Positions 1 to 16,774 of a stretch of DNA of 64,000 bases are shown in pieces. The stretch covers positions 2,612-66,611 of the forward strand of contig JAFGMY010000043.1 of assembly GCA_016927325.1 (NCBI GenBank). Direction: 5' to 3'. The DNA comes from Actinomycetota bacterium (lineage in GTDB: Bacteria; Actinomycetota; Geothermincolia; Fen-727; Anoxymicrobiaceae). How positions within the stretch are numbered: position 1 is the stretch's first letter; every line of letters starts with the position of its first letter. The translations under genes and the position numbers were made by a program. A model generated the notes under the pieces. That model ran no database searches. It saw only the letters and a list, made by a program, of their open reading frames with translations, and was not told where the DNA came from.

Positions 1-865
1 CGACGCCGTGGCCCAGCGAGTGTGTGAAGTTTTCCCCATAACCCTTCTCCTGAAGATAATTCCTCGCGGCTTTATCTACCGACGATGCTTCAACCCCCGG
101 CCGGATCGACTCGAGCGCCCTTTTTACCGCCTGGTCAACTGCAAGATATGCTTCATTTTCACGGTTGGAGGTGGGCGGCACTTTGATTGTGCGGGTGGTG
201 TCGCTCCTGTAGCCGCCGGCTTCGGCCCCGAAGTCGACGACAACGAGATCGCCTTCCTGTACCACCCGGTCCGTTATGCCCGCGTGTGGTTTTGAAGAGT
301 TCGGCCCGGATGCGACTATCGTCTCGAACGCAGGGGCGTCCGCGCCGGCCAGGACCATACGGTAATCGAGCTCGGCCGCCAGCTTCCTTTCGCTGATTCC
401 GGCTTTGATGAGGGGCAGCACCTGATTGAACCCTTCTTCCGCGAAGCATACCGCCCTTCGTATCAGTTCTATTTCCCCCGGCTCCTTGAATGTCCTCAAC
501 TCCTCGACGGCGCCTTCAACCGGCTTCAGGAGAGAGTGTTCCGGCAAGCCTTCGCTTAACCGTGAATAAAAGTCGAAGGAGAGGGTACTCTCGAAACCTG
601 TTGTACCACCGGGCAGAAGGTCCGAAATCGTACCGACGAGGTCTCCGGTGTAGATACTGATATCAAGACCGGGGCACTCCGCGGCTGCCTGTTCCGAGTA
701 CCGGCCGTCGGTTACCAATACGGCCTTGGACGGCGCAACCACCAGGAACGCGCTGCTGCCGCTGAAGCCGGTCAGGTATCTGATGTTCTCCATCCTGGTG
801 ACCAGCAGGCAGACGAGAGCCATTTTATCGAGTCGTGACGCCAGCTTTGAGGTGCGGCTGTTCAT
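1..865 (-). CDS. Xaa-Pro aminopeptidase/dipeptidase, peptidase family M24B (N-terminal ~288 aa; C-terminus lies beyond the left edge)
   Basis: Absent from the ORF track because no stop codon lies in the window. Own translation of the minus strand from ATG 865-863: MNSRTSKLASRLDKMALVCLLVTRMENIRYLTGFSGS...GDLVVVDFGAEAGGYRSDTTRT...FTHSLGHGV. This is a creatinase-like N-domain plus M24 metal-ligand motifs. Its ATG overlaps the TGA of the upstream ORF (ATGA, 862-865). Confidence 0.85.
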   Translation of the reverse strand, partial: MNSRTSKLASRLDKMALVCLLVTRMENIRYLTGFSGSSAFLVVAPSKAVLVTDGRYSEQAAAECPGLDISIYTGDLVGTISDLLPGGTTGFESTLSFDFYSRLSEGLPEHSLLKPVEGAVEELRTFKEPGEIELIRRAVCFAEEGFNQVLPLIKAGISERKLAAELDYRMVLAGADAPAFETIVASGPNSSKPHAGITDRVVQEGDLVVVDFGAEAGGYRSDTTRTIKVPPTSNRENEAYLAVDQAVKRALESIRPGVEASSVDKAARNYLQEKGYGENFTHSLGHGV

Positions 866-3102
866 GGAGCCTTCTCCAGTGTTATGTCGCCGACGATCAT
901 TGCCGCCTGTACGTCACTATAACCCGGCACTTCGCGCAGATAGTAAAGGCCGCCGTCAGAAACCAGCTCCAGCCTGTTCCTTCCGGGGTTCAGTGTGACG
1001 CCTTCGAGCGGGAGATCGCGCGGGTGCCTGGATACGGGAAAAGAGCTTATTTTCACTCCGTTAAGAAAAACCGTCAGAGTGGTGTCCGGCCCGGGAGAGC
1101 CGGCCTCGAAATTCAGCCGGCACGCGACCGGCTCCTCATGCATTGAGTCGATCATGATCTCCGCCCTGGTGACCGCCGGGTGCCGGAATTTCCCTTCCGG
1201 ATCCATGTAAGACTGGTAAAAACCCTGTCCGTAGAGCGGGAATAAACCAGGCTTTTCCGCGGTCACTTTATAAACCACGCAGTCATTAAAGTTCTTCACC
1301 ATGTCCAGGCCGGGGGGGATCTTTTCCAGATCGATTTCTGCCGGGAACGGGAAGTTGAGGTCCCATCCTTTGGGAATTTCGTACAGGGCGGGGATTACCA
1401 GAACGTACTCCGTTTTCAACTCCTTCAGCAGTCCCGGGGTACCCTTGCCTGTTATGTCCATGATGCTCTGGCGGCGGGTTTCCTCTAATGAGTCGGCTCC
1501 AGCCCCGTTAATCAGCGGTTTCTTATGGATTCTCTGCTGAAAAAAGTAACCATAGTTGTAAAAGCTGTCAATGTAAAAGAGCGGATAAACAGCGGTCACC
1601 GGTTTGCCGGGCTGCGCTTCAAGCCAGCGGTAGTAGTCGGTCGTCTCTTTGGTGTTGAGCGAATAGAACGGCGGCACTATTGAAAACTCGAAAAGCACCA
1701 GGATTGAGACGATAACTATCGCCGGCAACTTCCATTTTTTAAGAAGTTCCAGTTCTATTATCTTTGACGCGGCGTACCCGCAGAGGACCGCCACGCAGAA
1801 CACGGTAATCATCCCGAACCGGGCGTACACCCTGAACTGAGGGACCAACCGGTGCAAAAGGTAGGATGGCATATATATTTTGACTCCGAACAGTGAAAAA
1901 GACGGCGGCATGGAGACAAAAAAAGCAAACAGCCCGCATGCGGCGAAGGAGAAGATCAGCCGGTCTGGGGTTATCGCCCGGGTTATTTCCTTTTGCGCCG
2001 ACCCGCCGTTTGGTTCGGCGCTCTCCGGTGGTTCCTGTTTTTGATACGGCTCCTCAAAACCGCCTGAGGGTTTTTCGTTCTTCTTTCTTACAAGGCCGGC
2101 GAACGCTGTCACCACCGCGAAGATTGCTAGAAAAAGGGGAACATAACCTGGAAAAAGAGAGTTCTCGACAGTGAAGCTCCCGTGAATATTGTTCACGATA
2201 AAGTCCCGGGTCAGGTATCCGAGCGCGCTGCTTTCGGCATGGGGGATTAGATAGTCCCACGGTCTCGCCGAATACTTGTAAGCCTCGCTTATATTCCTTC
2301 CGCCGGCGGCTGGAGAGCCTGTGAATACGGTAAACAGAACGGCGATGATTATAAATACTGCAATGATGAAGGGAAGGGTTTTAAGAAGGCCGGTTACGTC
2401 CCTGCTCTTTTTTTTCAATGGACGGCCCGAAAGCCATAGTGCTAACGAGAAGAAGAGTGCGCAAACACCTGCAATAAAACCGTACTGGTAGTTATACAGG
2501 GTTATGAGAACGAACACCGCGCTGCAGCCGATAAGGTTACCGAGACTCCTTTGTGTCCATGACCTGATCAGCAGGAGGAAAAAGAGGGGTATCCAGAAAA
2601 CGGCTGTTAAGCCGAGGTGCTCCTTTCCCTGTACCAGTATGAACGGGCAGAAGCCGAGCACGAAGCCCGACAGGACGGCCGCGTAAATATTGCCGGTAAG
2701 GTACTTGACAAGGTAATAAGAGAATACTGCTGTCAGAAAAAACGATAACAGGAGGATGATGTTGTAGGCGATCGTCTCGGTTGAGATGATCGAAAGAAAC
2801 CGGGCCCCCAGGTTGAACAGCGGGTCGGTCCGGTAGGGATTGATGTTCAGCCCCGAGGGAACTCCGACGATGCTGACAGGTGTAACGGGGATCTGCTCGA
2901 AGAACGAGTACCTCAGCCACCAGAGCCACCACAGGCCGCCGAGGGGATCTTTAGGATCGGCATATGTCCGTGATGTCAGTGTGATGGCCGGGTAGGTCAT
3001 AATCAATACCACTGCGGCGTATGCGGAAAATATGAGGGGTTCGCGGGACAGCGATTTTAGAGTGAAAAAAGCCCTGATCTTCCCGCCCGCGTTCTTAAGC
3101 AT
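862..3102 (-). CDS. large polytopic membrane protein, putative GT-C-fold (ArnT/PMT/YfhO-like) glycosyltransferase; paralog of 14435-16774
   Basis: 746-aa ORF. The N-terminal two thirds are many hydrophobic helices; the C-terminal ~250 aa look soluble and beta-rich. Motifs MTYPAI, GGLWWLWWL and LFFLLLIRSW are mirrored in the 779-aa ORF at 14435-16774. Family assignment rests on architecture only. Confidence 0.6.
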   Translation of the reverse strand: MLKNAGGKIRAFFTLKSLSREPLIFSAYAAVVLIMTYPAITLTSRTYADPKDPLGGLWWLWWLRYSFFEQIPVTPVSIVGVPSGLNINPYRTDPLFNLGARFLSIISTETIAYNIILLLSFFLTAVFSYYLVKYLTGNIYAAVLSGFVLGFCPFILVQGKEHLGLTAVFWIPLFFLLLIRSWTQRSLGNLIGCSAVFVLITLYNYQYGFIAGVCALFFSLALWLSGRPLKKKSRDVTGLLKTLPFIIAVFIIIAVLFTVFTGSPAAGGRNISEAYKYSARPWDYLIPHAESSALGYLTRDFIVNNIHGSFTVENSLFPGYVPLFLAIFAVVTAFAGLVRKKNEKPSGGFEEPYQKQEPPESAEPNGGSAQKEITRAITPDRLIFSFAACGLFAFFVSMPPSFSLFGVKIYMPSYLLHRLVPQFRVYARFGMITVFCVAVLCGYAASKIIELELLKKWKLPAIVIVSILVLFEFSIVPPFYSLNTKETTDYYRWLEAQPGKPVTAVYPLFYIDSFYNYGYFFQQRIHKKPLINGAGADSLEETRRQSIMDITGKGTPGLLKELKTEYVLVIPALYEIPKGWDLNFPFPAEIDLEKIPPGLDMVKNFNDCVVYKVTAEKPGLFPLYGQGFYQSYMDPEGKFRHPAVTRAEIMIDSMHEEPVACRLNFEAGSPGPDTTLTVFLNGVKISSFPVSRHPRDLPLEGVTLNPGRNRLELVSDGGLYYLREVPGYSDVQAAMIVGDITLEKAP

Positions 3103-3226: not shown

Positions 3227-3946
3227 ATGGGGAGGTTTGTATTGAAGGACATAAGCAGTATCGGCCAGGTGGTTACCGCAAGGCACAGGTTTCTGATGAA
3301 GATGGCGGGAGACCTGGGCGGAATCGATATACTCGATCTCGGATGCAGCTTCGGCTGGTTTGAGCAAAGAGCTCTCCGGGACAGGGCGTCGAGGGTGGTG
3401 GGTCTGGACCTGGACCCGGTACAGATAAGAAGAGCTGAATCGGAAGCGCACGGGGCGGAACTGCACGTCAGGGACATCACCAGCGAACTGGCGGACCTTG
3501 GGAGTTTCGATCTGGTTTGTGCCTTCGACGCTGTCGAGCACCTGCCGAAGGGGTCGGAGGCCGGTTTCCTGGAAAACGTCATGGCGGTGCTCAAGCCTGG
3601 CGGCCGCCTGCTGATCTCGGTGCCTTACCGAAGTTTTTTTTCATGTACCCTCGATCCGGCGTTCTACTTCGGCCACAGGCACTACAGTCTCGACTCAATG
3701 GAAGCGCTTCTGCGGGCGTCCGGGTTCAGCGTCACCGGACGGGCTTTCGCAGGAGGCCCATGGTGGATGTTTTCAATGATATGGCTGTATATGTTCAAGT
3801 GGGTGTTCCGCCGCGATATGCCCTTTTATCGGTTTCTGGAGGAAAAACGCACCGGCGAGCACGAGAGATTTACGCGGAGTCCCGGCTTGCGCTCGTTTGC
3901 TACGATGTTCATCGAGGCCCGGCCCTGCCCATCACGTGCGGTTTAA
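3227..3946 (+). CDS. class I SAM-dependent methyltransferase
   Basis: 239-aa ORF with the SAM-binding motif I ILDLGCSFGWF, and AFDAVEHL plus LKPGGRLLISVP typical of Methyltransf_11/23-type enzymes. Its 3' end overlaps the convergent ORF 3909-4667 by 38 nt. Confidence 0.8.
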   Translation: MGRFVLKDISSIGQVVTARHRFLMKMAGDLGGIDILDLGCSFGWFEQRALRDRASRVVGLDLDPVQIRRAESEAHGAELHVRDITSELADLGSFDLVCAFDAVEHLPKGSEAGFLENVMAVLKPGGRLLISVPYRSFFSCTLDPAFYFGHRHYSLDSMEALLRASGFSVTGRAFAGGPWWMFSMIWLYMFKWVFRRDMPFYRFLEEKRTGEHERFTRSPGLRSFATMFIEARPCPSRAV

Positions 3947-4667
3947 CGCACTTGACGTTCATGAAAGCGGCATGGTGGTTGTCAAGCCTGCAGAGAAAAT
4001 CGGCAAGTTGGCCGGTAAAGGGGAAGTAGCCTGCGCCGAGGAACGTTTCCACCGGAAGCCCGTTCACCTCGCAGATCTCCACCAGGGCTTTTGGTGCCAT
4101 GACGCGCCGGTGCTGCAAGGGTCCGGGAACTCCAATTGATTTACGGTGGGCGGCCATGGGGTTTCCGATCCCCAACCTGGCTGAGCTGATATTGGTAAGG
4201 GAGAAAGGCTGCCATCCCAGAACCAGTGAGGCCACGTTTGGCCAACTGGCCAGGTTTTCGGTTGAAATTACAGCGAAACCTCCAGGCTTGAGAACGCGGT
4301 TGATTTCGCGCAGTAGGTGGTCGGTGTCCGGGAGGTGCTCGATAACCTGATTCAGGACTACCACATCGCACAGTTCATCCTCGAGCGGAAACCGCTTGTT
4401 CAAATCACCTTGAACCACTTCAACCCCGGCTTTTAAGGCTTTATGTCCCTGGGAAAGGTTGATCTCTATACCTATGGTTCTCGAGGCTCCCGAGGCACTG
4501 GAAACCTCCATGGTGAACGCCCCGTCGTCACAACCGCAATCGAGCAGTGTGCCGGCGTTTTTGCCCACAAGGGAAACGATCGCCCTCCTGTTCTTATCAC
4601 GGGCTTCGTTCCATATTTTTTTCAACATTCCTGCGAAAACCATATTCCACCGCCCTATTGGTGCCAT
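3909..4667 (-). CDS. class I SAM-dependent methyltransferase
   Basis: 252-aa ORF with motif I LLDCGCDDGAF, then VVLNQVIEHL and VLKPGGFAVISTEN. Its start overlaps the end of the upstream GT2 gene by 13 nt. Confidence 0.8.
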   Translation of the reverse strand: MAPIGRWNMVFAGMLKKIWNEARDKNRRAIVSLVGKNAGTLLDCGCDDGAFTMEVSSASGASRTIGIEINLSQGHKALKAGVEVVQGDLNKRFPLEDELCDVVVLNQVIEHLPDTDHLLREINRVLKPGGFAVISTENLASWPNVASLVLGWQPFSLTNISSARLGIGNPMAAHRKSIGVPGPLQHRRVMAPKALVEICEVNGLPVETFLGAGYFPFTGQLADFLCRLDNHHAAFMNVKCVKPHVMGRAGPR

Positions 4668-5683
4668 TTATTACGGGTATGCTGTCTGGGCCTTACCCGG
4701 CCTTCGATGACCCCGAATGCATATACCACCAGAGTTATGACGCATGCCGGGATGTGCAGCAGCCATGCGCTGTCCCGTTCGTGGAGACAGCCTTTTATTG
4801 CCTGGCAAGCGAGGGGAAAAACAAGCATGGTGTACACGATAAACTTCAACAGGCCGGTCTTTTTCTGCCGGCTCCAGGGATACGTTCTCATTCCCTTGTC
4901 CTGGAAGTAGGAGAAGTCGCGCACGCGGCGCAGCTGCTTTCTCGAGAAGTCGCCGAGGCCCCTGCCATAGAGGTGGACAATGCCCGTTTTTACCTTGGCG
5001 AACCTGATGTGCCCCTTCTCGACAAGCTGGTGAACGACATCGATGTCGAAAAGGTACTCTCCGATGCCGAGTGAATCAAGAAGTTCGCGCCTGACCATGA
5101 AGCCGTTCGCTCCGATTGTGGGTATTTCTGTCGGGGTCAGTATCACCTCCAGGTAATCACCTTTGTCCACAGTCTCTAGCTCCATTCCGGTCCAGGTGCC
5201 TGAAAGGACGCTTTCCCGGTCGTAGTTGCCGATAAAATAGCAGACAGGGTCGTTCATTCCGAGAAGCGCGCAGTACCTGGTGAGGATCGGATCGCCCTTG
5301 CGGTACTCGAACCTCAACGGCTCGCTCCCCGCGATCGCGCGGTCTCTGAAAGGCGCCGCCATCAGTGACATCCAGTCCGGTCCGGGAAGGATGTTGTCGC
5401 TGTCGATCAGTGCCACGATATCACCGGTGGACGCTTTGAGCCCCCGGGCCTTTCCCGCCTCTCCGGTCTTTCCGGGATTGTCGACGACCCTGCATTTGAA
5501 GTCCGCGGCTGTCTCCAGTGTGTTGTCGGCGGAACCGCCATCAGCGATTACTATTTCGATGCCGCCGCTGTAGTCCTGGCTTCGTATGCTTTCAAGGCAC
5601 CTCCGGAGCGTCTTGCCGGCGTTCAGTGTCGGGATAACAACACTTATGTCCGGATTAGAAGCTGTTTCAGGCTTTCTATCCAT
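4655..5683 (-). CDS. glycosyltransferase family 2
   Basis: ISVVIPTLNAGKTLRRCLESIRSQDY...EIVIADGGSADNT...ALIDSDN (GT-A fold with DxD). I place the start at Met36 of the listed ORF (ATG 5683-5681), which shares one nucleotide with the TAA of the upstream gene (TAATG). The longer listed ORF (to 5788) would lie inside the upstream gene. Confidence 0.8.
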   Translation of the reverse strand: MDRKPETASNPDISVVIPTLNAGKTLRRCLESIRSQDYSGGIEIVIADGGSADNTLETAADFKCRVVDNPGKTGEAGKARGLKASTGDIVALIDSDNILPGPDWMSLMAAPFRDRAIAGSEPLRFEYRKGDPILTRYCALLGMNDPVCYFIGNYDRESVLSGTWTGMELETVDKGDYLEVILTPTEIPTIGANGFMVRRELLDSLGIGEYLFDIDVVHQLVEKGHIRFAKVKTGIVHLYGRGLGDFSRKQLRRVRDFSYFQDKGMRTYPWSRQKKTGLLKFIVYTMLVFPLACQAIKGCLHERDSAWLLHIPACVITLVVYAFGVIEGRVRPRQHTRNKWHQ

Positions 5684-6939
5684 TACCACTTGCCGCTCTC
5701 TTCCCTTCTGCGTATTGCTTCCGCGATAGCGCCGGCTTCCATGGCAGCTACCGCACTCCACGTAAACTTCATGGCGAACCGGCGGCACTCCTCCGACCTG
5801 GACCGGAGAGACTCTTCGTCACCGAGGAGACCGGTTACGACTTCCGCGAACTGTTTGATGTCGCCAGGCTTGACGGTTATGACATGATGTTTGAATATCT
5901 TTCGGTAGTGAGGAAGCTTGCAGGCCACCGGCACCAGCCCTCTCGACATTGCTTCCAGGAGGCTGATGCCGAAGCCCTCTTCACGGCTTGCCGTTATAAA
6001 GAGCAGGCTGGACGCCAGTACGAGATCGACCTCTTCCCTGGAAAGATAACCCATGAGCTTGACGCTGCTATCGAGATCCAGCCTCCGCACTTCTTTCGAC
6101 AGCTGTTCTTCCACATCACGAGGCCCGGTTCCGACGATTGCCAGTTTGCTACCCGGCCTGATTTTCAGAACCGCTTTCCAGATGTCGAGCAGGTCAAGAA
6201 CGCCTTTGGAATGATGGAGCCTGCCGAGATAGCAGGCATCGAACCTCTTGGTAATGCCCGGGTGCGGCTCCGGGATATCGGTACCCATCCGTGTGACGAA
6301 GATGTTGTCCTCCCTGAAACCTTTACCGGTCAGCTGCTTCTTCAAGAGGGGATTATCGACTATTACCATATCTGCCAGCCTTGCGGCAAGAAGGAGGCTC
6401 GCTTTCTGGCTCAGGTAGGATATGGTATTGGAAACGGCGGAGCCACGTCTTTCACTGGGGTGAGGAATCAGGTGATAGACACACTGCACCCAGAAAGAGT
6501 TCCTGCCTTTCAGTATCCGCCCTATTGAAGCCGGCAGAACATCTGGTAGCATGTCCGATGCGCTATAGAACAGGATCCTGGGGCTTTTCCAGGGTATATA
6601 AAAAGGAGCGGTCAGTCCTCTTGCGAGGTACATACCCGCTATACCGAGGTTGCCCGCCCACGAGGGGGGGAGAACCAGGTAGGGGCCCCCGAAGCCCTCC
6701 ATCTCACAGTTCTGTCTTCCAACTTCGGGGGTCATCACAATAACCATCGTTCCGCTGTCACGCCAGTGGCGGGCCACTTCCACGAAATGTTTAGTTCCCC
6801 CTGATGCTTCCGGAGTGCGGGTGAACGCGTTTGAAAGAAACAGCGCGGTCCATCCGGACGGCAGGGTTGCGCCGCCTTCCGGTTCCATCTGTTCCTTTTT
6901 ATTTGATTCCCGTTCCCCGCGTTCCCTGTTCCCACTCAT
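5683..6939 (-). CDS. GT-B fold glycosyltransferase (family 4-like)
   Basis: 418-aa ORF with the C-terminal signature ASREEGFGISLLEAMSRGLVPVA (E-x7-E type GT4 motif). Its ATG directly follows the TAA of the upstream radical SAM gene with no spacer. Confidence 0.8.
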   Translation of the reverse strand: MSGNRERGERESNKKEQMEPEGGATLPSGWTALFLSNAFTRTPEASGGTKHFVEVARHWRDSGTMVIVMTPEVGRQNCEMEGFGGPYLVLPPSWAGNLGIAGMYLARGLTAPFYIPWKSPRILFYSASDMLPDVLPASIGRILKGRNSFWVQCVYHLIPHPSERRGSAVSNTISYLSQKASLLLAARLADMVIVDNPLLKKQLTGKGFREDNIFVTRMGTDIPEPHPGITKRFDACYLGRLHHSKGVLDLLDIWKAVLKIRPGSKLAIVGTGPRDVEEQLSKEVRRLDLDSSVKLMGYLSREEVDLVLASSLLFITASREEGFGISLLEAMSRGLVPVACKLPHYRKIFKHHVITVKPGDIKQFAEVVTGLLGDEESLRSRSEECRRFAMKFTWSAVAAMEAGAIAEAIRRREESGKW

Positions 6940-9700: not shown

Positions 9701-11218
9701 TTGAGGGTTATTTTTCTGCAGTCTGAAAACGAGAACCTTGCGATCGAGTACTTCTCTTCAATCCTTCAATCGCTTGGCCACGAGGTTGGCCTGACGTATG
9801 ACCACAGGTACTTCGCGCGTACCGGAATAAGCATCCCCGCGCTGGGGAGTGCCTTCGATATGAGAAACATGCTAGCCGATCAGGTCGTGAGAGGGCGGCC
9901 GGACCTTGTCTGTTTCTCGGTGATGACCAGCGACTACCTGTGGGCGGTTGATATGGCTTCACGGATCAAAGCGAGAAGTGATGTCCCGGTTCTGTTCGGC
10001 GGCATCCACGCGATATCCGTTCCCGATGTAGTGATGTCCGAGGCCCCTGTAGACATGGTGTGCGTGGGAGAGGGTGAAAAGGCACTGCCTCAACTGCTTG
10101 AACAGTTGCCGGATTTTCCCGGGATCGATGTGCCCGGCATATGGGTCAAGAACGGTGGCGAGGTGATAAGATCGGATGTCCCTCCACTCGTGGAGGATCT
10201 GGACGCCGTTCCATTTCCAGACAAGGAGCTTTTTTACCGGGAGCTTCCATGGTTATCTAGAGGTTATCTGCTGATCACCAGCAGGGGCTGTCCCTACTCA
10301 TGCACTTTTTGCGGTAACGACGTGCTTCGGAAGGCCTACAAGGGAAAGGGAAGGTACGTTAGAAGGAGATCGGTTGAGAGTGTCATGTCCGAGATCATGC
10401 TGGCCAGAGAGCGCTACAAACCCAAGAGATTTAATATACTGGACGACTGTTTCACTATGAACAAAAGTTGGCTGGGAGAGTTTTGCGGGTTATATGCAGA
10501 CAAGGTCCGGATTCCCTTTGTGGCCCTCTCCCATCCCCAGCTTATCGATGATGATGTCGCCGGCATGCTGTCTGACGCCGGATGCTTTATTCTGCTCCTT
10601 GGCATACAGAGTTCAAGCGAGAGTATCCGCTCGGAGATTCTAAACCGGAAAGAGAGCAACGAGCAGGTGATGCAGGCGGCGGAGATTTGCCACCGCCACG
10701 GCCTCCGCTTCTCGATTGACCATATATTCGGCCTGCCTTATGAAGGCGTCGAAGAGTACCGCCACGCGCTGTCTTTTTACAACAACCTGCGCCCGGACGC
10801 GGTAAACACATACTGGCTGGTTTACTTTCCCGGCACCACCATTATCGACCACGCCGTCGATGCCGGTATTCTCGCGAAAGACGACCTGGGACGCATCGAC
10901 CGGGGCGATATGGATATAAGCCTGAATGTGGGAATCGGCAGGGGCGACCGCAAAGACTCCGCGGTGGGCTTTAAGAACTACGCTTTTCTTTACAGCCTTA
11001 TCCCTCTTCTTCCCGGCAGAGTAATCGATTTCCTGGCGAAGCGCGAGATTTACCTCGATGGCAGGGATGTGCCGATATCTGTTACCGGGGCCCTCCGCGT
11101 CCTGGGCCTCATACGTCTGGGAATACTCGGGATCTATCTCGAGGAAGTTTTCGGCATGCTGGGCGGTTTTTTGAAAGAAACGTGGCGGCTCCTGGTTAGC
11201 AGAGTTTCCGGTAAATAA
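9701..11218 (+). CDS. B12-binding-domain radical SAM protein (class B radical SAM)
   Basis: 505-aa ORF with TTG start. Cobalamin-domain-like N-terminus (PDLVCFSVMTS...VLFGGIHAI...VCVGEGE), then TSRGCPYSCTFCGN (Cx3Cx2C). Its stop lies 1 nt from the stop of the convergent gene 11220-12677. Confidence 0.8.
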   Translation: MRVIFLQSENENLAIEYFSSILQSLGHEVGLTYDHRYFARTGISIPALGSAFDMRNMLADQVVRGRPDLVCFSVMTSDYLWAVDMASRIKARSDVPVLFGGIHAISVPDVVMSEAPVDMVCVGEGEKALPQLLEQLPDFPGIDVPGIWVKNGGEVIRSDVPPLVEDLDAVPFPDKELFYRELPWLSRGYLLITSRGCPYSCTFCGNDVLRKAYKGKGRYVRRRSVESVMSEIMLARERYKPKRFNILDDCFTMNKSWLGEFCGLYADKVRIPFVALSHPQLIDDDVAGMLSDAGCFILLLGIQSSSESIRSEILNRKESNEQVMQAAEICHRHGLRFSIDHIFGLPYEGVEEYRHALSFYNNLRPDAVNTYWLVYFPGTTIIDHAVDAGILAKDDLGRIDRGDMDISLNVGIGRGDRKDSAVGFKNYAFLYSLIPLLPGRVIDFLAKREIYLDGRDVPISVTGALRVLGLIRLGILGIYLEEVFGMLGGFLKETWRLLVSRVSGK

Positions 11219-11219: not shown

Positions 11220-12677
11220 TCAGCGTGCGTTTTTTCTGCCCCTCAGGGCGAAATCCCTCAAGTGCCCGAGAACTGCTTTCGCTGCTTTGGCGACGAACTT
11301 CAAGTCGTCCGCGGACCGGATCGAGACCATGGTGCGGAAGATAAACCTGGGGGTCAGAAAAGAACTGTAAAGGCCCTGTGTCAGCTGGCCCAGCTTTTCA
11401 GCCGGGATGCCGGTTTCCAACACCGGCCCGCTCATATCGTACCTGTCCCAGTCCATTGTGGTCAGCCACCCGTTCGCATCCGCTTCCTCAAAGAGAGGTG
11501 TCCCGGGATAAGGCACGACTATCGTCGCTTGCAGCATATCCGCCGCGCCGGTGTTCAGAAGTTGTTTGCATAGATCGAGGGTCCGTCTGGCGTCTGTTTC
11601 CGTTTCCCACGGGTATCCGACCATTGTGGTGAGGTGCACCGTCAGGCCGGCTTTTTTTGCCATGCCGCAGCTGTCGATAATCTCCTGAACCCTCGTTCCT
11701 TTTCTCAAGCGGTCAAGCGTTTGCTGGTTTGCCGATTCGAGCCCGAACTTGAGCAGGCGAAACCCCGCCCGGGCCATCATCTCGAACCCCTCCCTGTCCT
11801 GGGCGCCCACACGCGCGTTGCATGATATATTGATCTTCCCGGAGTATCCCCTGTCTATCATTCCATTGCAGAACCGGTCGAGCCATGCACCGGCGGGAAA
11901 GGTGCCGGTGTCGTCGAATATCTCCTTAACGCCGTACCTTTCAATGAGGTTTCCGATTTCATCCAGGACGGCGTCGCTTCTTCGCACCCTGAATTTCGGG
12001 TAAAGCGTGGTCCATGAGCAGAAAGTGCAGCGGGCGTACCAGCAGTCCCGGCCTGCCATGGTGTATGTGTGGGGTTTCTTCTTGAACAGGTGCTCGCCGT
12101 AGAGCTTCCACATGGTGAGATCCCGGTCGATTTCCGGAAGTTCGTTCAAGTCATGGTTGAGTGTGAAAAGACCGGTAGAGGCCGGTTTTCCGTCTTCCCG
12201 GTACCAGATCCCGGCTTCGAGCTGCCTGCCGTTCTCCAGGTGATCTACCAGGTTGACCAGCAGGAAGTCGTAATCCCCGCCGGTAAGCACGAAATCCACA
12301 GGGCTGTTTTCCATCGACTCCCCGGGGAGGGCGGTAACGTGGTCCCCGAAGAGGACCACGGTGGTTTCGGGCAGTTCGGCTTTGAGCCTCTTTATGATCT
12401 GCCAGTGAAGCTTGACCACCGGCGTCTTGGTTTCCATGGCTATCAGACCGGGACGCTCGCGGTTTATGAAGCTCCAGAACCGGTCGGGGGTCCAGCGCAT
12501 CGCCACTGCGTCGTTCCATAGCACCTCGTGGCCTTTCTCCTTCAGCATTGTCGCTGCGCAGGAAGGTACCATCGGGTAGATAAAAGACGGGTTATGAAAC
12601 CACTGAAATTGCCTGTTCTGCCCCAGGGTAGGGTGTCGTTCAACTCCCAGGGGAGGATAAGATACTGCTACTTTCAC
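11220..12677 (-). CDS. B12-binding-domain radical SAM protein with variant Cys spacing
   Basis: 485-aa ORF. GTG start overlaps the upstream TGA (GTGA). N-terminal B12-like domain (PGLIAMETKT...VVLFGDHVT...LTGGDYD). The cluster motif reads GRDCWYARCTFCSW, i.e. Cx4Cx2C rather than Cx3Cx2C. Confidence 0.7.
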   Translation of the reverse strand: MKVAVSYPPLGVERHPTLGQNRQFQWFHNPSFIYPMVPSCAATMLKEKGHEVLWNDAVAMRWTPDRFWSFINRERPGLIAMETKTPVVKLHWQIIKRLKAELPETTVVLFGDHVTALPGESMENSPVDFVLTGGDYDFLLVNLVDHLENGRQLEAGIWYREDGKPASTGLFTLNHDLNELPEIDRDLTMWKLYGEHLFKKKPHTYTMAGRDCWYARCTFCSWTTLYPKFRVRRSDAVLDEIGNLIERYGVKEIFDDTGTFPAGAWLDRFCNGMIDRGYSGKINISCNARVGAQDREGFEMMARAGFRLLKFGLESANQQTLDRLRKGTRVQEIIDSCGMAKKAGLTVHLTTMVGYPWETETDARRTLDLCKQLLNTGAADMLQATIVVPYPGTPLFEEADANGWLTTMDWDRYDMSGPVLETGIPAEKLGQLTQGLYSSFLTPRFIFRTMVSIRSADDLKFVAKAAKAVLGHLRDFALRGRKNAR

Positions 12678-14383
12678 TGTTCCTTCATCCTTTTCGAGAC
12701 GAGCCCTCTGATTACACCATAGCCGTAAACGATATGCGTGGCAATTATGCCGGGAAACATCATCATGTTGATCAGCGGGTTAAGGCTCTTGATGCTCGAA
12801 CCGAGCACGGCTACGAGATAGATGGATGCGATGGTTGCGTAGAAGAGCATGAATCCATTGCTGAAAAAGCTCAATATCAAACCGGCGATCAATGCGATCA
12901 GGAGAAGGCTCGGCACGAAATAGACCGGTTTTCTCGAAGTCTCGGGAAAAACCTTCGCGAAGTACCCCCTGTGAAGCGCATAAGAGTGTACCTGCCTCAA
13001 GTGCTCTCTGTAGACCTTCCGGCGGTGGTGGAAAACCGTCACGTTTGGAACATAAAGGATCTTCTTCCCCAGTTCCTGTGTCAGTTTCCAGCAGAATACG
13101 GTATCTTCACCCGGCCAGAACTCCGGGTCGAAACCTTTTACCGCGTCGAAGTCCGCCCGCCGGACGATGAGGTTGCTTGTGGGATAATCGTCAACTTCGC
13201 GGTATGCGCGGTATACGTACCTGTAAGTAGTGGGCCCGGACACAATCGACGCCGAGTATATCAGCCCACTGGCCTGTTGTCTCCTGGAGTCCCCTTCGGG
13301 GGTTACACCGGGGCCTCCGACTGCTGTTACTTCTTTATCATCGAAGTAGGCAATCGAGTTTTTGAGCCAGTCGTACTCAGGCCAGGCGTCGGAGTCAATG
13401 AACGCAAGGAGATCAGCGTCGCTGTCGGCGGCGCCCATGTTCCTCTTGATCGCAGGCCCGACGGGCCCGCTTTCGATGATTTTGCTTCCAGGTTGAGGGA
13501 GTTTCCTGACTGCCGCGCTATCGGTTATCAGTTTTATATCATAGTTCGAGTAGTTCAACTCGGAGCATCTCTCGAGGCACTCCTCTACCATGGGATCGAT
13601 CGCTCTGGTTGGTATGATTATGGACACCTTCGGCTCTTCACTTGATGCTGCTTTGAGTGGGCTTCCATAATAACCGTAGACATACAGGCGGTAGAAGATA
13701 CCTATTGTATCCACCACTATTCTGCGGATATCGAGCCAGGTTATCCGTTTATATTTTCGTTTGAAATCAAGCTTGATCGGGGTTTCGGCAATCCTGTAGC
13801 CCATGTAGTTTGCGGTAACCAGCAGTTCGAGATCCAGCGTGTATCCCTTGCAGGTCATTCTGGGGAATACCGTTTCGAGCACTTCCCTCCTGAACAGCTT
13901 GATGCCGGTCTGGGTGTCCCTCACCGGCAGCTTGAACATGAGGTAGATAATCCAGTAGTAGACCGTGCTGTATATCTTGCGGACCGCAGGGTAATCCAGC
14001 TCCGACTGCGGGTGCCTCTTGCTTCCGGTGACGATATCGGAGCCGGTGTTTCTCATTGTCGTGTAAAGGGTGCCGATTTGCGACGGATGAAGCTCGAGGT
14101 CAGCGTCTATGAAGCAGACATACTCCATTCCGGATACCTCAAAGCCCCTTTTCATGGCGTTGCCTTTGCCGCGGTTCTCCTTGAGACTAACTACCCTGAC
14201 TGTTTCCAGATCGAGGGCGGCCCTGCCGACTTCATGCGCGGTGTCGTCGGTGCTCCCGTCGTTCACGACAATGATCTCGTATTCCCTGATGAGCTTTTTC
14301 ATCTCCGCTGCTGTTTCCAGGATGGTGCGGTAGATCGAATCCGCCTCGTTGTAAGTCGGGATGATTACCGATATTCCTCGCAC
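12674..14383 (-). CDS. two-domain family 2 glycosyltransferase with C-terminal membrane anchor (first domain Dpm1/GtrB-like)
   Basis: Domain 1: ISVIIPTYNEADSI...IIVVNDGSTDDT...FIDADL. Domain 2: VSIIIPTRAID...AFIDSDAWP. The C-terminal ~90 aa are hydrophobic (VYFVPSLLLIALIAGLILSFF...). Confidence 0.8.
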   Translation of the reverse strand: MRGISVIIPTYNEADSIYRTILETAAEMKKLIREYEIIVVNDGSTDDTAHEVGRAALDLETVRVVSLKENRGKGNAMKRGFEVSGMEYVCFIDADLELHPSQIGTLYTTMRNTGSDIVTGSKRHPQSELDYPAVRKIYSTVYYWIIYLMFKLPVRDTQTGIKLFRREVLETVFPRMTCKGYTLDLELLVTANYMGYRIAETPIKLDFKRKYKRITWLDIRRIVVDTIGIFYRLYVYGYYGSPLKAASSEEPKVSIIIPTRAIDPMVEECLERCSELNYSNYDIKLITDSAAVRKLPQPGSKIIESGPVGPAIKRNMGAADSDADLLAFIDSDAWPEYDWLKNSIAYFDDKEVTAVGGPGVTPEGDSRRQQASGLIYSASIVSGPTTYRYVYRAYREVDDYPTSNLIVRRADFDAVKGFDPEFWPGEDTVFCWKLTQELGKKILYVPNVTVFHHRRKVYREHLRQVHSYALHRGYFAKVFPETSRKPVYFVPSLLLIALIAGLILSFFSNGFMLFYATIASIYLVAVLGSSIKSLNPLINMMMFPGIIATHIVYGYGVIRGLVSKRMKEQ

Positions 14384-14434: not shown

Positions 14435-16774
14435 TTACTGGATTATCCTTGGTTTGACTGAAACGTCCCCAAGCTTGAGAAATGCCGTCGGGGTCCCGAA
14501 GAAGTTGACTTCAACCTCATCTATTTTGACAGCAGGGCCCGACGGGGTCAGCACTATAATAAGACCTCCCGCAGGTATTTTCACGTTAGACAGCCGGACA
14601 CTCTCCTGCTGGTCGCCCGTAAGGTCGCCTTCCCAGACAGTATCTCCATCAATTGAAATATTCAGATGATGAGGGGATGCGATATTATTGATCGGCACTT
14701 CAATATCCGCTTCAAGCTGTTCTTCCGCAAAATTAACAATATGGATCTCCCCCGTACCCGCCAGGAGCCTCACTGTTATTTTGCCCTGATCGATGAAGGG
14801 GGTTGATATTCGGCCGGCATAGAACGGCACAAGGCTGGAAGGCCGGTCGGCGACCTTGAACAGGTAGCCGTCGGAGAAAATATCATCGCTTTCAATTCTG
14901 TTTATGAGTTCAAGCCCCTGTGGAAGGTGGGACATCTCTTCCTCCTTATTTTCCGTACCTTCGTAGAGTTCGAACATCTTGCGGAGGTAAATTACGTGTG
15001 TTATCCCGAAGCTGCTCAGGATCGAGGGCACCATGGGATTAAACGGGTTGTAAACGGTCCGGCGCAGAGCTTCGCCGTCAGAGTAATCATAGCCTCCGTT
15101 GAGCATTGGTCGCTGGAAATATCTCTGGTAGAGAAGATACCGTTGCGAATGAAAGAAGGACGCTTCGAACGCTGGATAGATTACCAGGCTGCTGTCTTCG
15201 GGGAGTTTACCGGCGAGCCGGAAGATTTCAGGTGTTTTGTCGACTTTGAAATACTTGAAAGGTGGAACAACGGCCGTCTCGCAGAAAATAACCACTGTTA
15301 ATATTATTATTATCGCGTATCGCCACCGCGTGTTCATATTTCTAATGATATGCTGAACCGCGAAGCAGGCGATTACAATTACGCATGCGGCGACCATTAC
15401 CCCAAAACGGAGGTACCATCGGAACCAGGGCGCGATAAAGCGGAAAACAAGGCTTGGCATAGGGACCGCAAAGTCGCCGATATATACATTGGGTGGCAGT
15501 GAAAAGACTAAAGCGGACACTCCTCCTGCAAAGAATCCCCATAGAATAATGCGCTTGTGGGCGGACTCGAAGATTGATACCTCGGTGCCGTCGACTAACA
15601 CGGAGTTTTCCTTCTCAGCTCCGTCAGGTTGTTTTTCAGCACTCCTTTTCCTGGTAAAAATGACCATTGACGCGATCGCGAGAACAAGTATGGTCCATCC
15701 GATGTAAAGCGAATTGTTAAACATTTTGAGGTCGTTTTTGTTCAATTTTCTTACAATGCGGCCTACCGTGAAATTTTCAGCATTCGGGATAACGTAGTCC
15801 TTCAGTTTCGCTGATCCCGAGATTGTGGCCTCGAGGGTCCTTGAAGAGCCCTGCGTAGGAATCCCCGCCAACTCCCCGGTGGTGGTCTCAGTTATGATTT
15901 GAAGAGTGAAGAAGGGCACGATAACAGCAACTGTAATGAAAATGGATATAATAATCAGTATTATTGTCTGGCGGTACGGGTAGGCAGCCGTAACAGCCGT
16001 ATTTACTTCAACATCTTTCTTTTCTTTGTCGGCTTTTCTGTTCTGAAGAGCAAAACAAGTTAGACATACCGACGAAAAAGTAATGGTGAAAATGATTGTG
16101 AAGAGTCCGTAATGAAGGCAGGTTCCGGCCGTAAGAATCAGGGAAGAACAGAATAGTATGCAGTTTTTCCACCCGGGCTTTTCGATAAGCCGTATCAGCA
16201 GAAGCATTGCGAGCGGCATCCATTGTATTATGGACAGGTTAGGGAAAAGCATGCTGTTCACCGCGTGATAAGTGCAGATCATATAAGCAAAGCCACCCAC
16301 GAAAGCGGCCGGTTTGCTGCGGGTCACATGGCGAACAAGATAGTACATCGTGATTCCCGAGAGAAAGAAGCTGGTAAAAACAATAAGGTTGCAGAGAAGT
16401 ACCTCATTCACGAAGAACAACAAGAACTTTGCCCCGAACTGGTAGATGAACTCGGCGTACATGGCGTTGATGCCCTGGCCGAAAGGGGCTCCGATCAAGG
16501 GACAAAAAGTGGCGTTTGATCCGAAAGAACCGGCATTTCTATACCACCACAAGAGCCATGTCGTGCCCATATTGTCACTCGGAATCCCATATAAGGCGCT
16601 CGAGAAATTGGAAATAACAGGCCATGTAAGAAAACCGGTCATTAAGAAATAGAATAAGAAAATAATCATTTCAGGAATGTTCCGCTTCAGTGCCGGTCTC
16701 AGGCGCGAAGAACCGTTCGGCATAGCTTCTTCGCCGGAGTTTCTGACTTCGTCTGGTGTTTCCGGGGTATCCAA
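14435..16774 (-). CDS. large polytopic membrane protein, putative GT-C-fold glycosyltransferase; paralog of 862-3102
   Basis: 779-aa ORF with a TTG start as listed. An internal ATG at 16723 with GGAG 8 nt upstream is an alternative start. Motifs LTWPVI, TTWLLWWY and LAMLLLIRLI match the 746-aa ORF. Long hydrophobic core and a beta-rich C-terminal domain. Confidence 0.6.
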   Translation of the reverse strand: MDTPETPDEVRNSGEEAMPNGSSRLRPALKRNIPEMIIFLFYFLMTGFLTWPVISNFSSALYGIPSDNMGTTWLLWWYRNAGSFGSNATFCPLIGAPFGQGINAMYAEFIYQFGAKFLLFFVNEVLLCNLIVFTSFFLSGITMYYLVRHVTRSKPAAFVGGFAYMICTYHAVNSMLFPNLSIIQWMPLAMLLLIRLIEKPGWKNCILFCSSLILTAGTCLHYGLFTIIFTITFSSVCLTCFALQNRKADKEKKDVEVNTAVTAAYPYRQTIILIIISIFITVAVIVPFFTLQIITETTTGELAGIPTQGSSRTLEATISGSAKLKDYVIPNAENFTVGRIVRKLNKNDLKMFNNSLYIGWTILVLAIASMVIFTRKRSAEKQPDGAEKENSVLVDGTEVSIFESAHKRIILWGFFAGGVSALVFSLPPNVYIGDFAVPMPSLVFRFIAPWFRWYLRFGVMVAACVIVIACFAVQHIIRNMNTRWRYAIIIILTVVIFCETAVVPPFKYFKVDKTPEIFRLAGKLPEDSSLVIYPAFEASFFHSQRYLLYQRYFQRPMLNGGYDYSDGEALRRTVYNPFNPMVPSILSSFGITHVIYLRKMFELYEGTENKEEEMSHLPQGLELINRIESDDIFSDGYLFKVADRPSSLVPFYAGRISTPFIDQGKITVRLLAGTGEIHIVNFAEEQLEADIEVPINNIASPHHLNISIDGDTVWEGDLTGDQQESVRLSNVKIPAGGLIIVLTPSGPAVKIDEVEVNFFGTPTAFLKLGDVSVKPRIIQ

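Follow-up and report, generated by a model that had tools for sequence, protein, structure and literature searches.

A candidate cell-envelope glycosylation island combining GT-C-fold glycosyltransferases, methyltransferases and radical SAM enzymes in an uncultured actinobacterium

What could a 16-kb block of genes in an uncultured actinobacterium assemble, when it combines large membrane proteins, glycosyltransferases, methyltransferases and radical SAM enzymes without a single key enzyme from a family of tested function? An earlier note on this DNA had described eleven genes lying between an M24B peptidase gene and efp. Our ORF check of the window (the whole stretch of 64,000 nucleotides that was analysed) recovered 11 of 11 at the coordinates given in Table 1, together with both flanks, and Pfam agreed on three class I methyltransferases (MT3 weakly), one GT4-like, one GT2 and one double-GT2 enzyme. 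None of the proteins reaches any curated NCBIfam cutoff, so the functional assignments are only at the superfamily level; we could place no component in a characterised pathway, and a description of the locus did not turn up in literature searches. Among the scanned ORFs of the window, we found no Wzx, Wzy, ABC exporter, GtrA/GtcA, WecA/WbaP or nucleotide-sugar genes, in agreement with the earlier view of a glycoconjugate locus outside the Wzx/Wzy, ABC-transporter and teichoic-acid templates.

Table 1. Genes of the island and its flanks, with positions in the window.
Feature	Position	Strand	Basis
M24B (Xaa-Pro-type) peptidase gene, 5' part	1..861	-	Open frame; gene truncated by the window edge
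Mem1, 746 aa, GT-C-fold membrane glycosyltransferase	862..3102	-	AF2 model, Foldseek, family Pfam matches
MT1, class I SAM methyltransferase	3227..3946	+	Pfam Methyltransf_23/25/11, ~1e-14
MT2, class I SAM methyltransferase	3909..4667	-	Pfam Methyltransf_11, 3e-17
GT2a, GT2 glycosyltransferase, 342 aa	4655..5683	-	Pfam Glycos_transf_2, 1.8e-21
GT4, GT4-family (GT-B) glycosyltransferase	5683..6939	-	Pfam Glycos_transf_1, 5.6e-27
rSAM1, B12-binding-domain radical SAM	6940..8403	-	Pfam Radical_SAM 1e-19, B12-binding 3.8e-15
MT3, 301 aa, weak class I methyltransferase domain (residues ~116-203)	8456..9361	-	Pfam Methyltransf_25, 1.5e-8
rSAM2, B12-binding-domain radical SAM	9701..11218	+	Pfam Radical_SAM 2.8e-19, B12-binding 6.2e-15
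rSAM3, radical SAM, highly conserved family	11220..12677	-	Pfam Radical_SAM and weak B12-binding-like N-domain
dGT2, 569 aa, two fused GT2 domains	12674..14383	-	Pfam, PDB sequence matches, AF2/Foldseek
Mem2, 779 aa, Mem1 paralog, same GT-C family	14435..16774	-	Aligned with Mem1 in family alignment A1
efp	16954..17613	+	Pfam EFP_N, EFP, Elong-fact-P_C

The genes are packed as tightly as had been reported, with overlap or abutment at most same-strand junctions, except for two spacers of ~51 nt. A GTGA overlap joins dGT2 and rSAM3, rSAM1 is followed by GT4 with no gap (TAA then ATG), and the GT4/GT2a junction is TAATG, which places the real start of GT2a at 5683 rather than at 5788. GT2a in turn overlaps MT2 by 13 nt, the 3' end of MT1 overlaps MT2 by 38 nt on the opposed strand, and the stop of Mem1 overlaps the start of the M24 gene (ATGA). 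Judging from these junctions, rSAM3 is predicted to be translationally coupled to dGT2 via the GTGA, and the M24 gene to be co-transcribed with Mem1. Both flanks are conserved, efp on the left-hand side and the M24 peptidase gene on the right: the M24 fragment is 48-72% identical to the Creatinase_N + Peptidase_M24 genes that follow the Mem1 orthologs in L001-L008, and an EF-P of 185 aa adjoins the Mem2 ortholog in L001. In our window, efp probably starts further downstream than the TTG at 16954.

The gene set is also kept in relatives. A metagenomic contig (L089) carries nine of the 11 genes (Mem2, dGT2, rSAM3, inverted rSAM2, MT3, rSAM1, GT4, MT2, and inverted MT1) in the same order and orientation, at 35-72% protein identity, and L096 retains the part from rSAM3 to GT4. 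Since L089/L090 and L096 show the same order and orientation, as do L001, L005, and L008 in part, the clustering is not due to chance, the alternative that the earlier note had wished to see checked by co-conservation. Genes of the same kinds are clustered in Ca. Methanoperedens (L084), L086, L015, and L029. The frame holds one radical SAM and one methyltransferase in L001, and many methyltransferases in L002; in another relative it is filled by GFO/hexapeptide/DegT amino-sugar genes, with dGT2 present without rSAM3, and in L009 Mem2, dGT2, and Mem1 stand side by side. The interval from efp to the M24 gene thus keeps a constant frame of GT-C and GT2 genes in which the tailoring genes are exchanged, and such variation between related genomes is as expected for a surface antigen.

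Within the conserved frame GT2-MT-Mem1, MT2 has orthologs in L001 (77%), L002 (50%), L008 (55%), and L089 (52%), and GT2a, which has C-terminal hydrophobic helices and TM-like segments near its C-terminus, has them in L001, L002, L003, L005, and L008 (61-75%) and in the deltaproteobacterial L029 (48%). Orthologs of Mem2 occur in L001 (58%), L009 (37%), and L089 (35%), and those of GT4 in L001 (77%), L089, and L096 (50-51%). MT1 is accessory (49-52% in L002, L008, and L089; no counterpart in L001), and rSAM1, rSAM2, and MT3 belong to an accessory cassette: rSAM1 has orthologs of 56-67% in L089-L096, while in L089, L090, and L096 rSAM2 is likewise inverted (60-61%) and MT3, whose N-terminal ~100 aa match no domain, lies between rSAM2 and rSAM1 (50-51%).

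The two large membrane proteins at the ends of the island are paralogs, as had been proposed (26% identity over 720 residues, E = 4e-63), and they are GT-C-fold glycosyltransferases with a CBM-like tail, members of a large uncharacterised family that is not STT3-type. The AF2 model of Mem1 (pLDDT 84.5, pTM 0.82) has ~12 TM helices followed by a C-terminal extracytoplasmic domain that ends in a CBM-like beta-sandwich. In Foldseek it matches STT3, DPY19, AftD, AglB, EmbC, and PglB at E 1e-8 to 3e-4, all of them GT-C enzymes that use polyprenyl-linked donors, and its tail matches CBM6/35/36. The suggested comparison with PglB and YfhO gave PglB among the structural matches of Mem1, and YfhO, together with DUF6541, PTPS_related, and PMT_2, among the Pfam matches of other family members; Mem1 and Mem2 themselves match no Pfam family. 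Neither contains the WWDxG motif of STT3 or an EL1 DxD/ExD, and neither matches the STT3 profile; the acidic residue D52, which lies in the first outer loop of Mem1, hardly varies in alignment A1.

dGT2 (AF2 pLDDT 89.8) consists of an N-domain (1-240) and a C-domain (241-569) that ends in three TM helices (486-562), with the invariant motifs D93xD95 and D330xD332. The PDB sequence matches of the N-domain are DPMS (5mlz, 2e-14), ArnC, and GtrB, and Foldseek superposes it on these enzymes at 2.5-3.4 Å rmsd and 22-26% identity (2.5 Å over 238 columns for DPMS). DPMS, ArnC, and GtrB load sugars on polyprenyl monophosphate; the N-domain is thus probably a priming-type enzyme, which could explain the missing WecA/WbaP-type primer. 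The earlier note had seen no WecA/WbaP-type priming transferase; this holds, but priming in general is probably provided for.

Taken as a whole, dGT2 also resembles two-domain polymerases, and it could be a bifunctional membrane-anchored enzyme that makes an alternating two-sugar polysaccharide from nucleotide sugars, like the chondroitin polymerase K4CP or the heparosan synthase PmHS2; the radical SAM enzymes and methyltransferases would then modify the polymer, and the GT-C proteins would add side branches outside. K4CP (1e-19) and PmHS2 (4e-17) are indeed its top whole-protein Foldseek matches, both DxD motifs are invariant, the C-domain has PF13632, common in processive synthases, and JGI names its homologs 'cellulose synthase/PNAG synthase-like'. 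However, the TM-scores to K4CP and PmHS2 are only ~0.3 with rmsd of 17-18 Å, so these matches reflect the presence of two GT-A domains and not a common arrangement. L084 and L086 encode the halves as two genes, L087, L116, L117, and L032 do without the N-half, the nearest matches of the N-domain are the non-processive DPMS, ArnC, and GtrB, and an exporter for a cytoplasmic polymer is absent. We consider a polymerase distinctly unlikely.

The three radical SAM proteins all have both domains of the B12-binding class to which the earlier note had assigned them, although the B12-binding score of rSAM3 (27.6 bits) is below the Pfam cutoff of 32.1. The cysteine motif is canonical in rSAM1 (C193xxxCxxC) and rSAM2 (C197xxxCxxC) and non-canonical in rSAM3 (C212-x4-C217-x2-C220), where it is kept in 17 orthologs; the full-length identity of the rSAM3 family is 58-83% across Actinomycetota, Latescibacterota, and Ca. 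Methanoperedens. The best NCBIfam matches are BchE, HpnJ, and ApyD for rSAM1 and ApyD for rSAM2, all under cutoff, and the closest solved structures are AprD4 and MgmA, with PDB matches of at most 61 bits. HpnJ, BchE, and AprD4 are not methylases. Given these nearest families, the sub-threshold B12-binding domain, and the CX4CX2C motif of rSAM3, the heavily C-/O-methylated glycan proposed in the earlier note is a plausible and reasonable hypothesis, and the three enzymes need not all be C-methylases. All three end in cationic amphipathic helices (the C-terminus of rSAM2 being hydrophobic or amphipathic), which fits work at the membrane surface. No TM segments are found in the methyltransferases, rSAM1, or rSAM3, and rSAM2 has one C-terminal hydrophobic stretch.

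The C-half of dGT2 and rSAM3 form a two-gene module across bacterial phyla and Ca. Methanoperedens (41-46% identity for the former and 50-62% for the latter), with rSAM3 directly downstream in the other-phylum loci that were mapped in full. The core of the island could accordingly be a glycolipid head-group pathway, in which the C-terminal GT2 would attach a sugar to an endogenous membrane lipid, rSAM3 would rearrange that sugar (a ring contraction to a carbocyclic cyclitol being one example, as has been proposed for HpnI/HpnJ of hopanoids and for the calditol synthase Cds of archaeal lipids), and the other genes would decorate or extend the head group. This possibility, which partly overlaps with the envelope pathway that we propose below, we regard as rather unlikely. 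In L087, L116, and L117 the pair is self-contained and has no further glycan genes around it, and HpnJ ranks first among the full-length NCBIfam matches of rSAM3 (E = 7.5e-45, model positions 30-454 of 472). With HpnI/HpnJ and Cds the island would share the pairing of a membrane glycosyltransferase with a B12-domain-type radical SAM enzyme that acts on a lipid-linked sugar (PMC13459092, PMC9204698), HpnJ and Cds have been proposed to contract the ring of lipid-linked hexoses by radical SAM chemistry (PMC13459092), and CX4CX2C and a B12-binding score under threshold would suit such an enzyme, the motif being shared with the sugar ring-contracting OxsB (PMC9204698). Nevertheless, the HpnJ score of rSAM3 is 154 bits against a cutoff of 578, about one quarter, and rSAM1 scores about equally on this model, so the resemblance is not specific. 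The C-methylase GenD1 also has CX4CX2C (PMC4340712), and OxsB is not in the PDB sequence matches of rSAM3. There are no HpnI, HpnK, or hopanoid genes, the pair occurs in hosts and contexts unrelated to hopanoids, and many lineages embed it with GT-C transferases and a polyprenyl-phosphate-GT-like domain.

Cobalamin radical SAM enzymes that tailor sugars have precedents in GenK and GenD1 of gentamicin and MoeK5 of moenomycin (PMC9204698, PMC4340712), class B enzymes that C-methylate sugar carbons. These belong to antibiotic pathways of Streptomyces and Micromonospora, and their similarity to the island enzymes is remote, as the scores given above indicate. We find it very improbable that the island is a secondary-metabolite cluster for an aminoglycoside- or moenomycin-like glycoside or a glycosylated C-methylated peptide (RiPP) rather than an envelope component. 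That the characterised sugar-tailoring enzymes serve antibiotics (PMC9204698) and that rSAM2 matches the RiPP enzyme ApyD best would agree with it; the ApyD score, however, is 132 bits against a cutoff of 750, no precursor peptide, aminocyclitol, prenyltransferase, resistance, or export genes were found, the island occupies a fixed chromosomal site amid housekeeping genes, apparently co-transcribed with the M24 peptidase, and two GT-C transferases typical of envelope glycosylation frame it.

We give a little better than even chances to a pathway of cell-envelope glycosylation in which sugars are handled on a lipid carrier and attached outside the cell. What we observe are the assigned domains and folds, the paralogy of the membrane proteins, the co-conservation, and the variable cassette; from these we infer the carrier, step order, chemistry, and acceptor of the pathway as follows. 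The dGT2 N-domain would load a sugar onto polyprenyl monophosphate at the cytoplasmic face, like DPMS, ArnC, and GtrB, and the dGT2 C-domain, GT4, and GT2a would add further sugars. The three methyltransferases and three radical SAM enzymes would tailor the carrier-bound sugars, presumably before export, since they depend on SAM and reducing power and, apart from the rSAM2 stretch, lack TM segments. rSAM1 and rSAM2 would most likely C-methylate unactivated carbons, and rSAM3, in its fixed pair with the dGT2 C-domain, might catalyse C-methylation or a radical rearrangement. A putative flippase would then carry the product across the membrane, and Mem1 and Mem2 would pass the tailored sugars to an extracytoplasmic acceptor, which the CBM-like tail suggests is a glycan, a protein also being possible. 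Several observations weigh against this pathway: neither the island nor the scanned window ORFs hold a flippase (GtrA/GtcA, Wzx, or ArnEF-like), an exporter, or nucleotide-sugar genes; dGT2 has the polymerase resemblance discussed above; GT2-rSAM3 pairs also occur by themselves, away from any GT-C gene; and some relatives lack parts of the scheme (Mem1 and GT2a in L090, rSAM3 in one locus).

The proposed pathway can be compared with the three-component polyprenyl-phosphate systems GtrA/GtrB/GtrX, CsbB/GtcA/YfhO, ArnC/ArnEF/ArnT, and Ppm1/PMT. As in these, a DPMS/GtrB/ArnC-type GT2 adjoins GT-C-fold transferases, a WecA/WbaP-type primer is absent, and some members of the Mem family match YfhO and PMT_2 profiles. 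Unlike them, the island has no small flippase gene, its own GT-C proteins match no Pfam family, and it has two GT-C paralogs with an extra GT2 and GT4, which points to an oligosaccharide rather than a single sugar; its set of three radical SAM enzymes and three methyltransferases has, to our knowledge, no counterpart in the known systems. Mycobacterial AftD and EmbA/B/C share an actinobacterial host, the GT-C fold, and a C-terminal carbohydrate-binding-type beta-sandwich with the Mem proteins, and AftD and EmbC are among the Foldseek matches of Mem1, but sequence similarity is undetectable, Mem1 and Mem2 are much smaller, and the island has no decaprenyl-phospho-arabinose genes. A further parallel is archaeal Agl N-glycosylation, which in Haloferax volcanii involves AglJ, AglG, AglP, AglB, and AglS. 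The dGT2 halves match AglJ, a dolichyl-phosphate hexose transferase, and AglG below threshold; assembly on a monophosphate carrier and a SAM methyltransferase that tailors the carrier-bound sugar (both proposed here), together with two GT-C-type transferases, are further likenesses, and genes of the kinds seen in the island are also found in Ca. Methanoperedens. In contrast to Agl, Mem1 and Mem2 lack the STT3-type features listed above, all Agl HMM scores are far under cutoff, and the acceptor of the island pathway may not be a protein. Finally, Mem2, the first gene of the efp-proximal operon, has a GC content of 0.465-0.485, below that of the rest of the island.

The eleven open reading frames that the earlier note had assigned to the island were all found where it had placed them, and Pfam bears out their claimed domains, including the count of three methyltransferases. 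Mem1 and Mem2, the large membrane proteins at the two ends of the island, are paralogs as had been proposed (26% identity across 720 residues, E = 4e-63). Tight junctions had also been claimed throughout; five of the seven same-strand junctions do overlap or abut, but in the other two about 51 nt separates the genes. The junction is GTGA between dGT2 and rSAM3, TAA followed immediately by ATG between rSAM1 and GT4, TAATG between GT4 and GT2a, and ATGA between Mem1 and the M24 peptidase gene, and the GT2a and MT2 genes overlap by 13 nt. Since the GT4 stop takes part in the TAATG junction, the true start of GT2a is at 5683 (342 aa), which is also the length of GT2a in relatives; the mechanical ORF call was over-extended. 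Likewise, the efp start probably lies 3' of the TTG at 16954, because the EF-P of a relative has 185 aa and the called ORF 219.

Features of the island, its flanks and the rest of the window
Feature	Position	Strand	Description
M24 peptidase gene	truncated at window start		flank of the island on the Mem1 side
Mem1	862-3102	-	large membrane protein, 746 aa
MT1	3227-3946	+	class I SAM methyltransferase (Pfam)
MT2	3909-4667	-	class I SAM methyltransferase (Pfam)
GT2a	4655-5788 (called ORF)	-	GT2 (Pfam)
GT4	5683-6939	-	GT4 (Pfam)
rSAM1	6940-8403	-	B12-binding and Radical_SAM (Pfam)
MT3	8456-9361	-	class I SAM methyltransferase, weaker match (Pfam)
rSAM2	9701-11218	+	B12-binding and Radical_SAM (Pfam)
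rSAM3	11220-12677	-	B12-binding (score below cutoff) and Radical_SAM (Pfam)
dGT2	12674-14383	-	two GT2 domains (Pfam)
Mem2	14435-16774	-	large membrane protein, 779 aa
efp	16954-17613 (called ORF)	+	next to the island beyond Mem2
PyrR-binding RNA element	18071-18172	+	Rfam, 57.7 bits, above gathering score
pyr operon	18282 to about 28200		pyrR-pyrB-pyrC-(carA-carB by position)-pyrK-pyrD-pyrF
tRNA gene	37308-37392	-	Rfam tRNA, 54.9 bits
Nitroreductase gene	37787-38524
SPASM-domain radical SAM gene	38568-40118	-
MMPL transporter gene	40320-42659
965-aa protein	42929-45826		weak ASRT/DUF5719-like matches

Our comparison with related loci separates the island into a stable frame and a variable cassette. 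In related Actinomycetota the frame runs efp, Mem2, dGT2, cassette, GT2a, MT2, Mem1 and M24 peptidase, and in locus L009 Mem2, dGT2 and Mem1 are direct neighbours. The cassette of the closest relative, L001 (Mem1 66% identical), consists only of an rSAM3 ortholog and one methyltransferase; that of L002 holds at least seven methyltransferases together with epimerase and GT4 genes; and in the JGI locus it carries oxidoreductase, acetyltransferase and aminotransferase genes of the kind usual for diacetamido-sugar synthesis. The earlier note had treated the island's genes as one set, and a check of their co-conservation agrees with this, the three radical SAM genes being kept together in L089, L090 and L096. 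Locus L089 preserves the window's order: Mem2 (35% identity), dGT2 (58%), rSAM3 (72%), rSAM2 (60%, inverted), MT3 (50%), rSAM1 (67%), GT4 (50%), MT2 (52%) and MT1 (50%, inverted). L090 carries on as far as the M24 gene, and the rSAM3, rSAM2, MT3, rSAM1 and GT4 part recurs in L096. Among distant GT-C homologs (22-29% identical), B12 radical SAM genes are adjacent in 8 of about 78 loci, an enrichment too weak on its own to support a claim; the order-conserved synteny is the stronger evidence. Loci L015 and L029 (a deltaproteobacterial MAG) are rich in B12 radical SAM genes near distant Mem homologs.

Single components are missing in some relatives, such as the JGI locus, which has no radical SAM gene, and L090. 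In the latter (5505-8200), otherwise syntenic, MT2 and MT1 are followed directly by the M24 gene without GT2a and Mem1, so that the second GT-C protein and its GT2 are dispensable in this lineage. Orthologs of rSAM1 (56-59%) were also observed outside the island context, in L091 (5737-11194) and L093 (1774-6764), where their neighbours are MT1-like and MT2-like methyltransferases as well as two unassigned ORFs with lengths near 256 and 290 aa; this sequence context hints that rSAM1 and class I methyltransferases may act as a unit. A role of the island in modifying EF-P, considered on account of the neighbouring efp, was rejected, since both efp and the M24 gene simply border the insertion site as conserved neighbours, and the enzymes are of a membrane glycan type. 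Beyond the M24 gene, on the opposite strand, relatives encode proteins without annotation, among them a pilin-like N_methyl protein and others some 800-1,000 aa long (L001 13314-15309; L002 13241-22178; L003 13053-21998; L009 12094-19442; all outside the window). L009 and the JGI locus have there two more GT-C-like proteins (TMEM260-like and YfhO-like), a prepilin peptidase and PilM. These proteins could be candidate acceptors or simply neighbours.

rSAM3 and the C-terminal half of dGT2 make up a conserved two-gene module. Orthologs of rSAM3 with 58-83% full-length identity occur in Actinomycetota, Latescibacterota and the archaeon Ca. Methanoperedens. In all six loci of other phyla that were mapped in full (L084, L086, L087, L116, L117 and L032), an rSAM3 ortholog (50-62%) lies immediately 3' of a gene orthologous to the C-terminal half of dGT2, a GT2 domain (41-46%). 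Upstream, L084 and L086 encode the N-terminal half as a gene of its own; the other four lack it, and the pair stands on its own in L087, L116 and L117. The Ca. Methanoperedens locus repeats the window's kinds of genes: GT2, GT2, radical SAM, GT2, GT4, epimerase, a second B12 radical SAM, a double methyltransferase and GT4. Over Actinomycetota, Latescibacterota, Anaerolineales and Ca. Methanoperedens, the pair is 50-83% identical and carries the CX4CX2C motif. We tentatively suggest, as a possibility with the odds against it, that this broadly distributed pair performs a so far undescribed radical change of a lipid-linked sugar, for example ring contraction to a carbasugar or C-alkylation. A glycosyltransferase paired with a radical SAM enzyme on a lipid-linked hexose has precedents in HpnI/HpnJ and Cds (PMC13459092). 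A glycolipid head-group pathway is a rival explanation.

All three radical SAM proteins are placed by sequence in class B, the cobalamin-dependent radical SAM enzymes, and may bind cobalamin. For rSAM1 and rSAM2, both Pfam domains score above cutoff and the motif is the canonical CX3CX2C; for rSAM3, the Radical_SAM domain is above cutoff and B12-binding (PF02310) reaches 27.6 against a Pfam cutoff of 32.1. The cluster motif of rSAM3, C212-x4-C217-x2-C220, shows little or no variation among 17 orthologs. It has been reported that this variant occurs among cobalamin radical SAM enzymes in OxsB, for sugar ring contraction, and in GenD1, for sugar C-methylation (PMC9204698, PMC4340712). rSAM3 may carry out either methylation or a rearrangement. 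For rSAM1 and rSAM2 the default would, by analogy, be C-methylation, the chemistry most often seen in class B. None of the three reaches the NCBIfam equivalog cutoffs of HpnJ, BchE, ApyD, HpnR, PhpK, MgmA or AprD4, with top scores of 152-157 bits against cutoffs of 481-750 bits; the best-matching models are BchE, HpnJ and ApyD. Their nearest solved relatives are AprD4, a diol dehydratase, and 9ccb (MgmA), a glutamine C-methylase; several of these five enzymes, namely HpnJ, BchE and AprD4, are not methylases. The mutual identity of the three proteins is 26-29%, which makes them old paralogs and rules out a recent duplication. Their C-termini are cationic amphipathic helices, which fits enzymes working at the membrane surface.

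The double glycosyltransferase offers a possible answer to a puzzle raised by the earlier note, the missing WecA or WbaP primer. Residues 4-207 of dGT2 match DPMS (dolichyl-phosphate mannose synthase, 5mlz, 2e-14) and also ArnC and GtrB in a PDB sequence search, and its AlphaFold model (pLDDT 89.8) superposes on these three with Foldseek at an rmsd of 2.5-3.4 A over about 230 columns (22-26% identity). All three put a sugar onto polyprenyl monophosphate, and by analogy the N-domain (residues 1-240) would offer the priming step without WecA or WbaP. D93xD95 and indeed both DxD motifs are invariant, and the fusion ends at its C-terminus in three TM helices. The ArnC NCBIfam model scores dGT2 at 68 bits against a 529-bit cutoff. 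A second rival explanation is that dGT2 is a bifunctional polymerase; in Foldseek the whole protein matches K4CP and PmHS2, which are two-domain polymerases, with a TM-score of only about 0.3.

Profile searches against known families had been suggested for the large membrane proteins; Mem1 and Mem2 themselves match no Pfam or NCBIfam family (no Pfam match at E <= 0.1). Among 34 relatives, weak Pfam matches (best E-values 1e-6 to 3e-9) were found to DUF6541 (15), PTPS_related (PF10131; 12), PMT_2 (PF13231; 7) and YfhO (PF09586; 7), so the sequences point to a family related to these but distinct from them. A literature search on DUF6311 gave no relevant paper. Structure was more informative. 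The AlphaFold model of Mem1, built from 34 homologs (pLDDT 84.5, pTM 0.82), has about 12 TM helices, and its best PDB matches in Foldseek are all GT-C enzymes, namely human and yeast OST STT3, DPY19, AftD, EmbC, AglB and PglB (probability 1.0, E 1.6e-8 to 2.7e-4, TM-score 0.25-0.51). DPY19 is a C-mannosyltransferase, AftD and EmbC are mycobacterial, AglB is archaeal and PglB bacterial. Mem1 thus combines a many-TM bundle and an extracytoplasmic domain with structural likeness to solved GT-C enzymes; its last ~150 residues match CBM6/35/36 carbohydrate-binding modules in a fold search, and D52 (DPLG), in the first outer loop after TM1, is a candidate for the acidic catalytic residue expected there in GT-C enzymes, being shared by at least 90% of the 34 family members. 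The hallmarks of the STT3/PglB/AglB oligosaccharyltransferases are missing from Mem1 and Mem2: the WWDxG motif does not occur, the first 120 residues, searched for the EL1 motif, contain no [DE]x[DE], and the STT3 Pfam profile matches none of the 34 family members. Given the GT-C fold and these missing hallmarks, we place both proteins in a separate, uncharacterised family of the GT-C superfamily, not among STT3-type oligosaccharyltransferases. The family profile retrieves 5,115 cluster-50 representatives at E <= 1e-30 and 15,041 at E <= 1e-10, and no match in a sequence-profile search against the PDB. The closer Mem1 homologs (40-67% identity) belong to Actinomycetota that have not been cultured, Candidatus Geothermincolia and Anoxymicrobiaceae among them.

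The Mem2 gene has a GC content of 0.465-0.485 against 0.52-0.57 in the rest of the island, and it is conserved less than its neighbours (58% identity in L001 versus 82-85% for dGT2 and rSAM3); faster evolution or exchange of the gene would fit.

It is important to note that every functional assignment of the island proteins is at superfamily level. Within this limit, we infer as the most likely mechanism that dGT2, GT4 and GT2a would load and extend sugars at the cytoplasmic face, with polyprenyl phosphate as the carrier, and that the SAM-dependent enzymes would tailor the carrier-bound sugars there; these enzymes have no export signals and so must act on that side. The product would then cross the membrane by a flippase, and Mem1 and Mem2 would hand sugars to an acceptor in the envelope. 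A glycan as acceptor is favoured by the CBM-like tail and by the resemblance to AftD and EmbC, while the resemblance to STT3 and DPY19 keeps a protein open. No flippase, exporter, phosphoglycosyltransferase or nucleotide-sugar gene was found among the window ORFs scanned. The mismatch with textbook loci that had been pointed out therefore stands, as WecA/WbaP, Wzx and Wzy, and an ABC exporter were absent from the island genes and the other window ORFs scanned. Wzx-like genes are present in one distant related locus, L086. Neither a cobalamin riboswitch nor another RNA element was detected in the 339-bp divergent gap (9362-9700) or elsewhere in the island, the gap holds no credible small ORF, and promoter and terminator consensus scans gave counts near shuffled expectation, which makes them uninformative.

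The general logic of lipid-linked assembly followed by GT-C transfer is already known, which is not so for its combination with several cobalamin-type radical SAM enzymes, for the cross-domain GT2-rSAM3 module or for the Mem GT-C family. We found no description of such a locus in the searchable literature, searches for B12 radical SAM enzymes with GT-C proteins or polysaccharide clusters gave no relevant paper, and surface glycans are absent from a 2026 review on B12 radical SAM enzymes. Cobalamin-type radical SAM enzymes have been described in antibiotic, cofactor, lipid and peptide pathways, and a secondary-metabolite cluster is a third rival explanation; as routine tailoring enzymes of cell-surface glycans they are not described in the searchable literature. 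The island and its relatives would bring radical chemistry into envelope glycan assembly in uncultured anaerobic bacteria and archaea. If the GT2-rSAM3 pair does perform the undescribed sugar change suggested above, it would, with the Mem family (>5,000 cluster representatives), define a new route by which many uncultured anaerobes make surface glycans tailored by radical chemistry. The island would also illustrate how a locus for lipid-linked glycans can do without a classical priming transferase. Three targets for biochemistry follow: the highly conserved GT2 and radical SAM pair, the large Mem family without a solved structure, and the natural cassette variants (one versus three radical SAM genes, or many methyltransferases), which could tie genes to glycan structures.

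Elsewhere, the window contains the pyr operon, coaBC, genes for sensor kinases and others without relation to the island. The PyrR-binding element just upstream of the pyr operon represents ordinary pyrimidine attenuation control. Further downstream, a SPASM-domain radical SAM gene has a nitroreductase gene on one side and an MMPL transporter gene on the other, beyond which comes the gene of the 965-aa protein; together they could form a separate maturation or export system. A lone tRNA gene was also identified.
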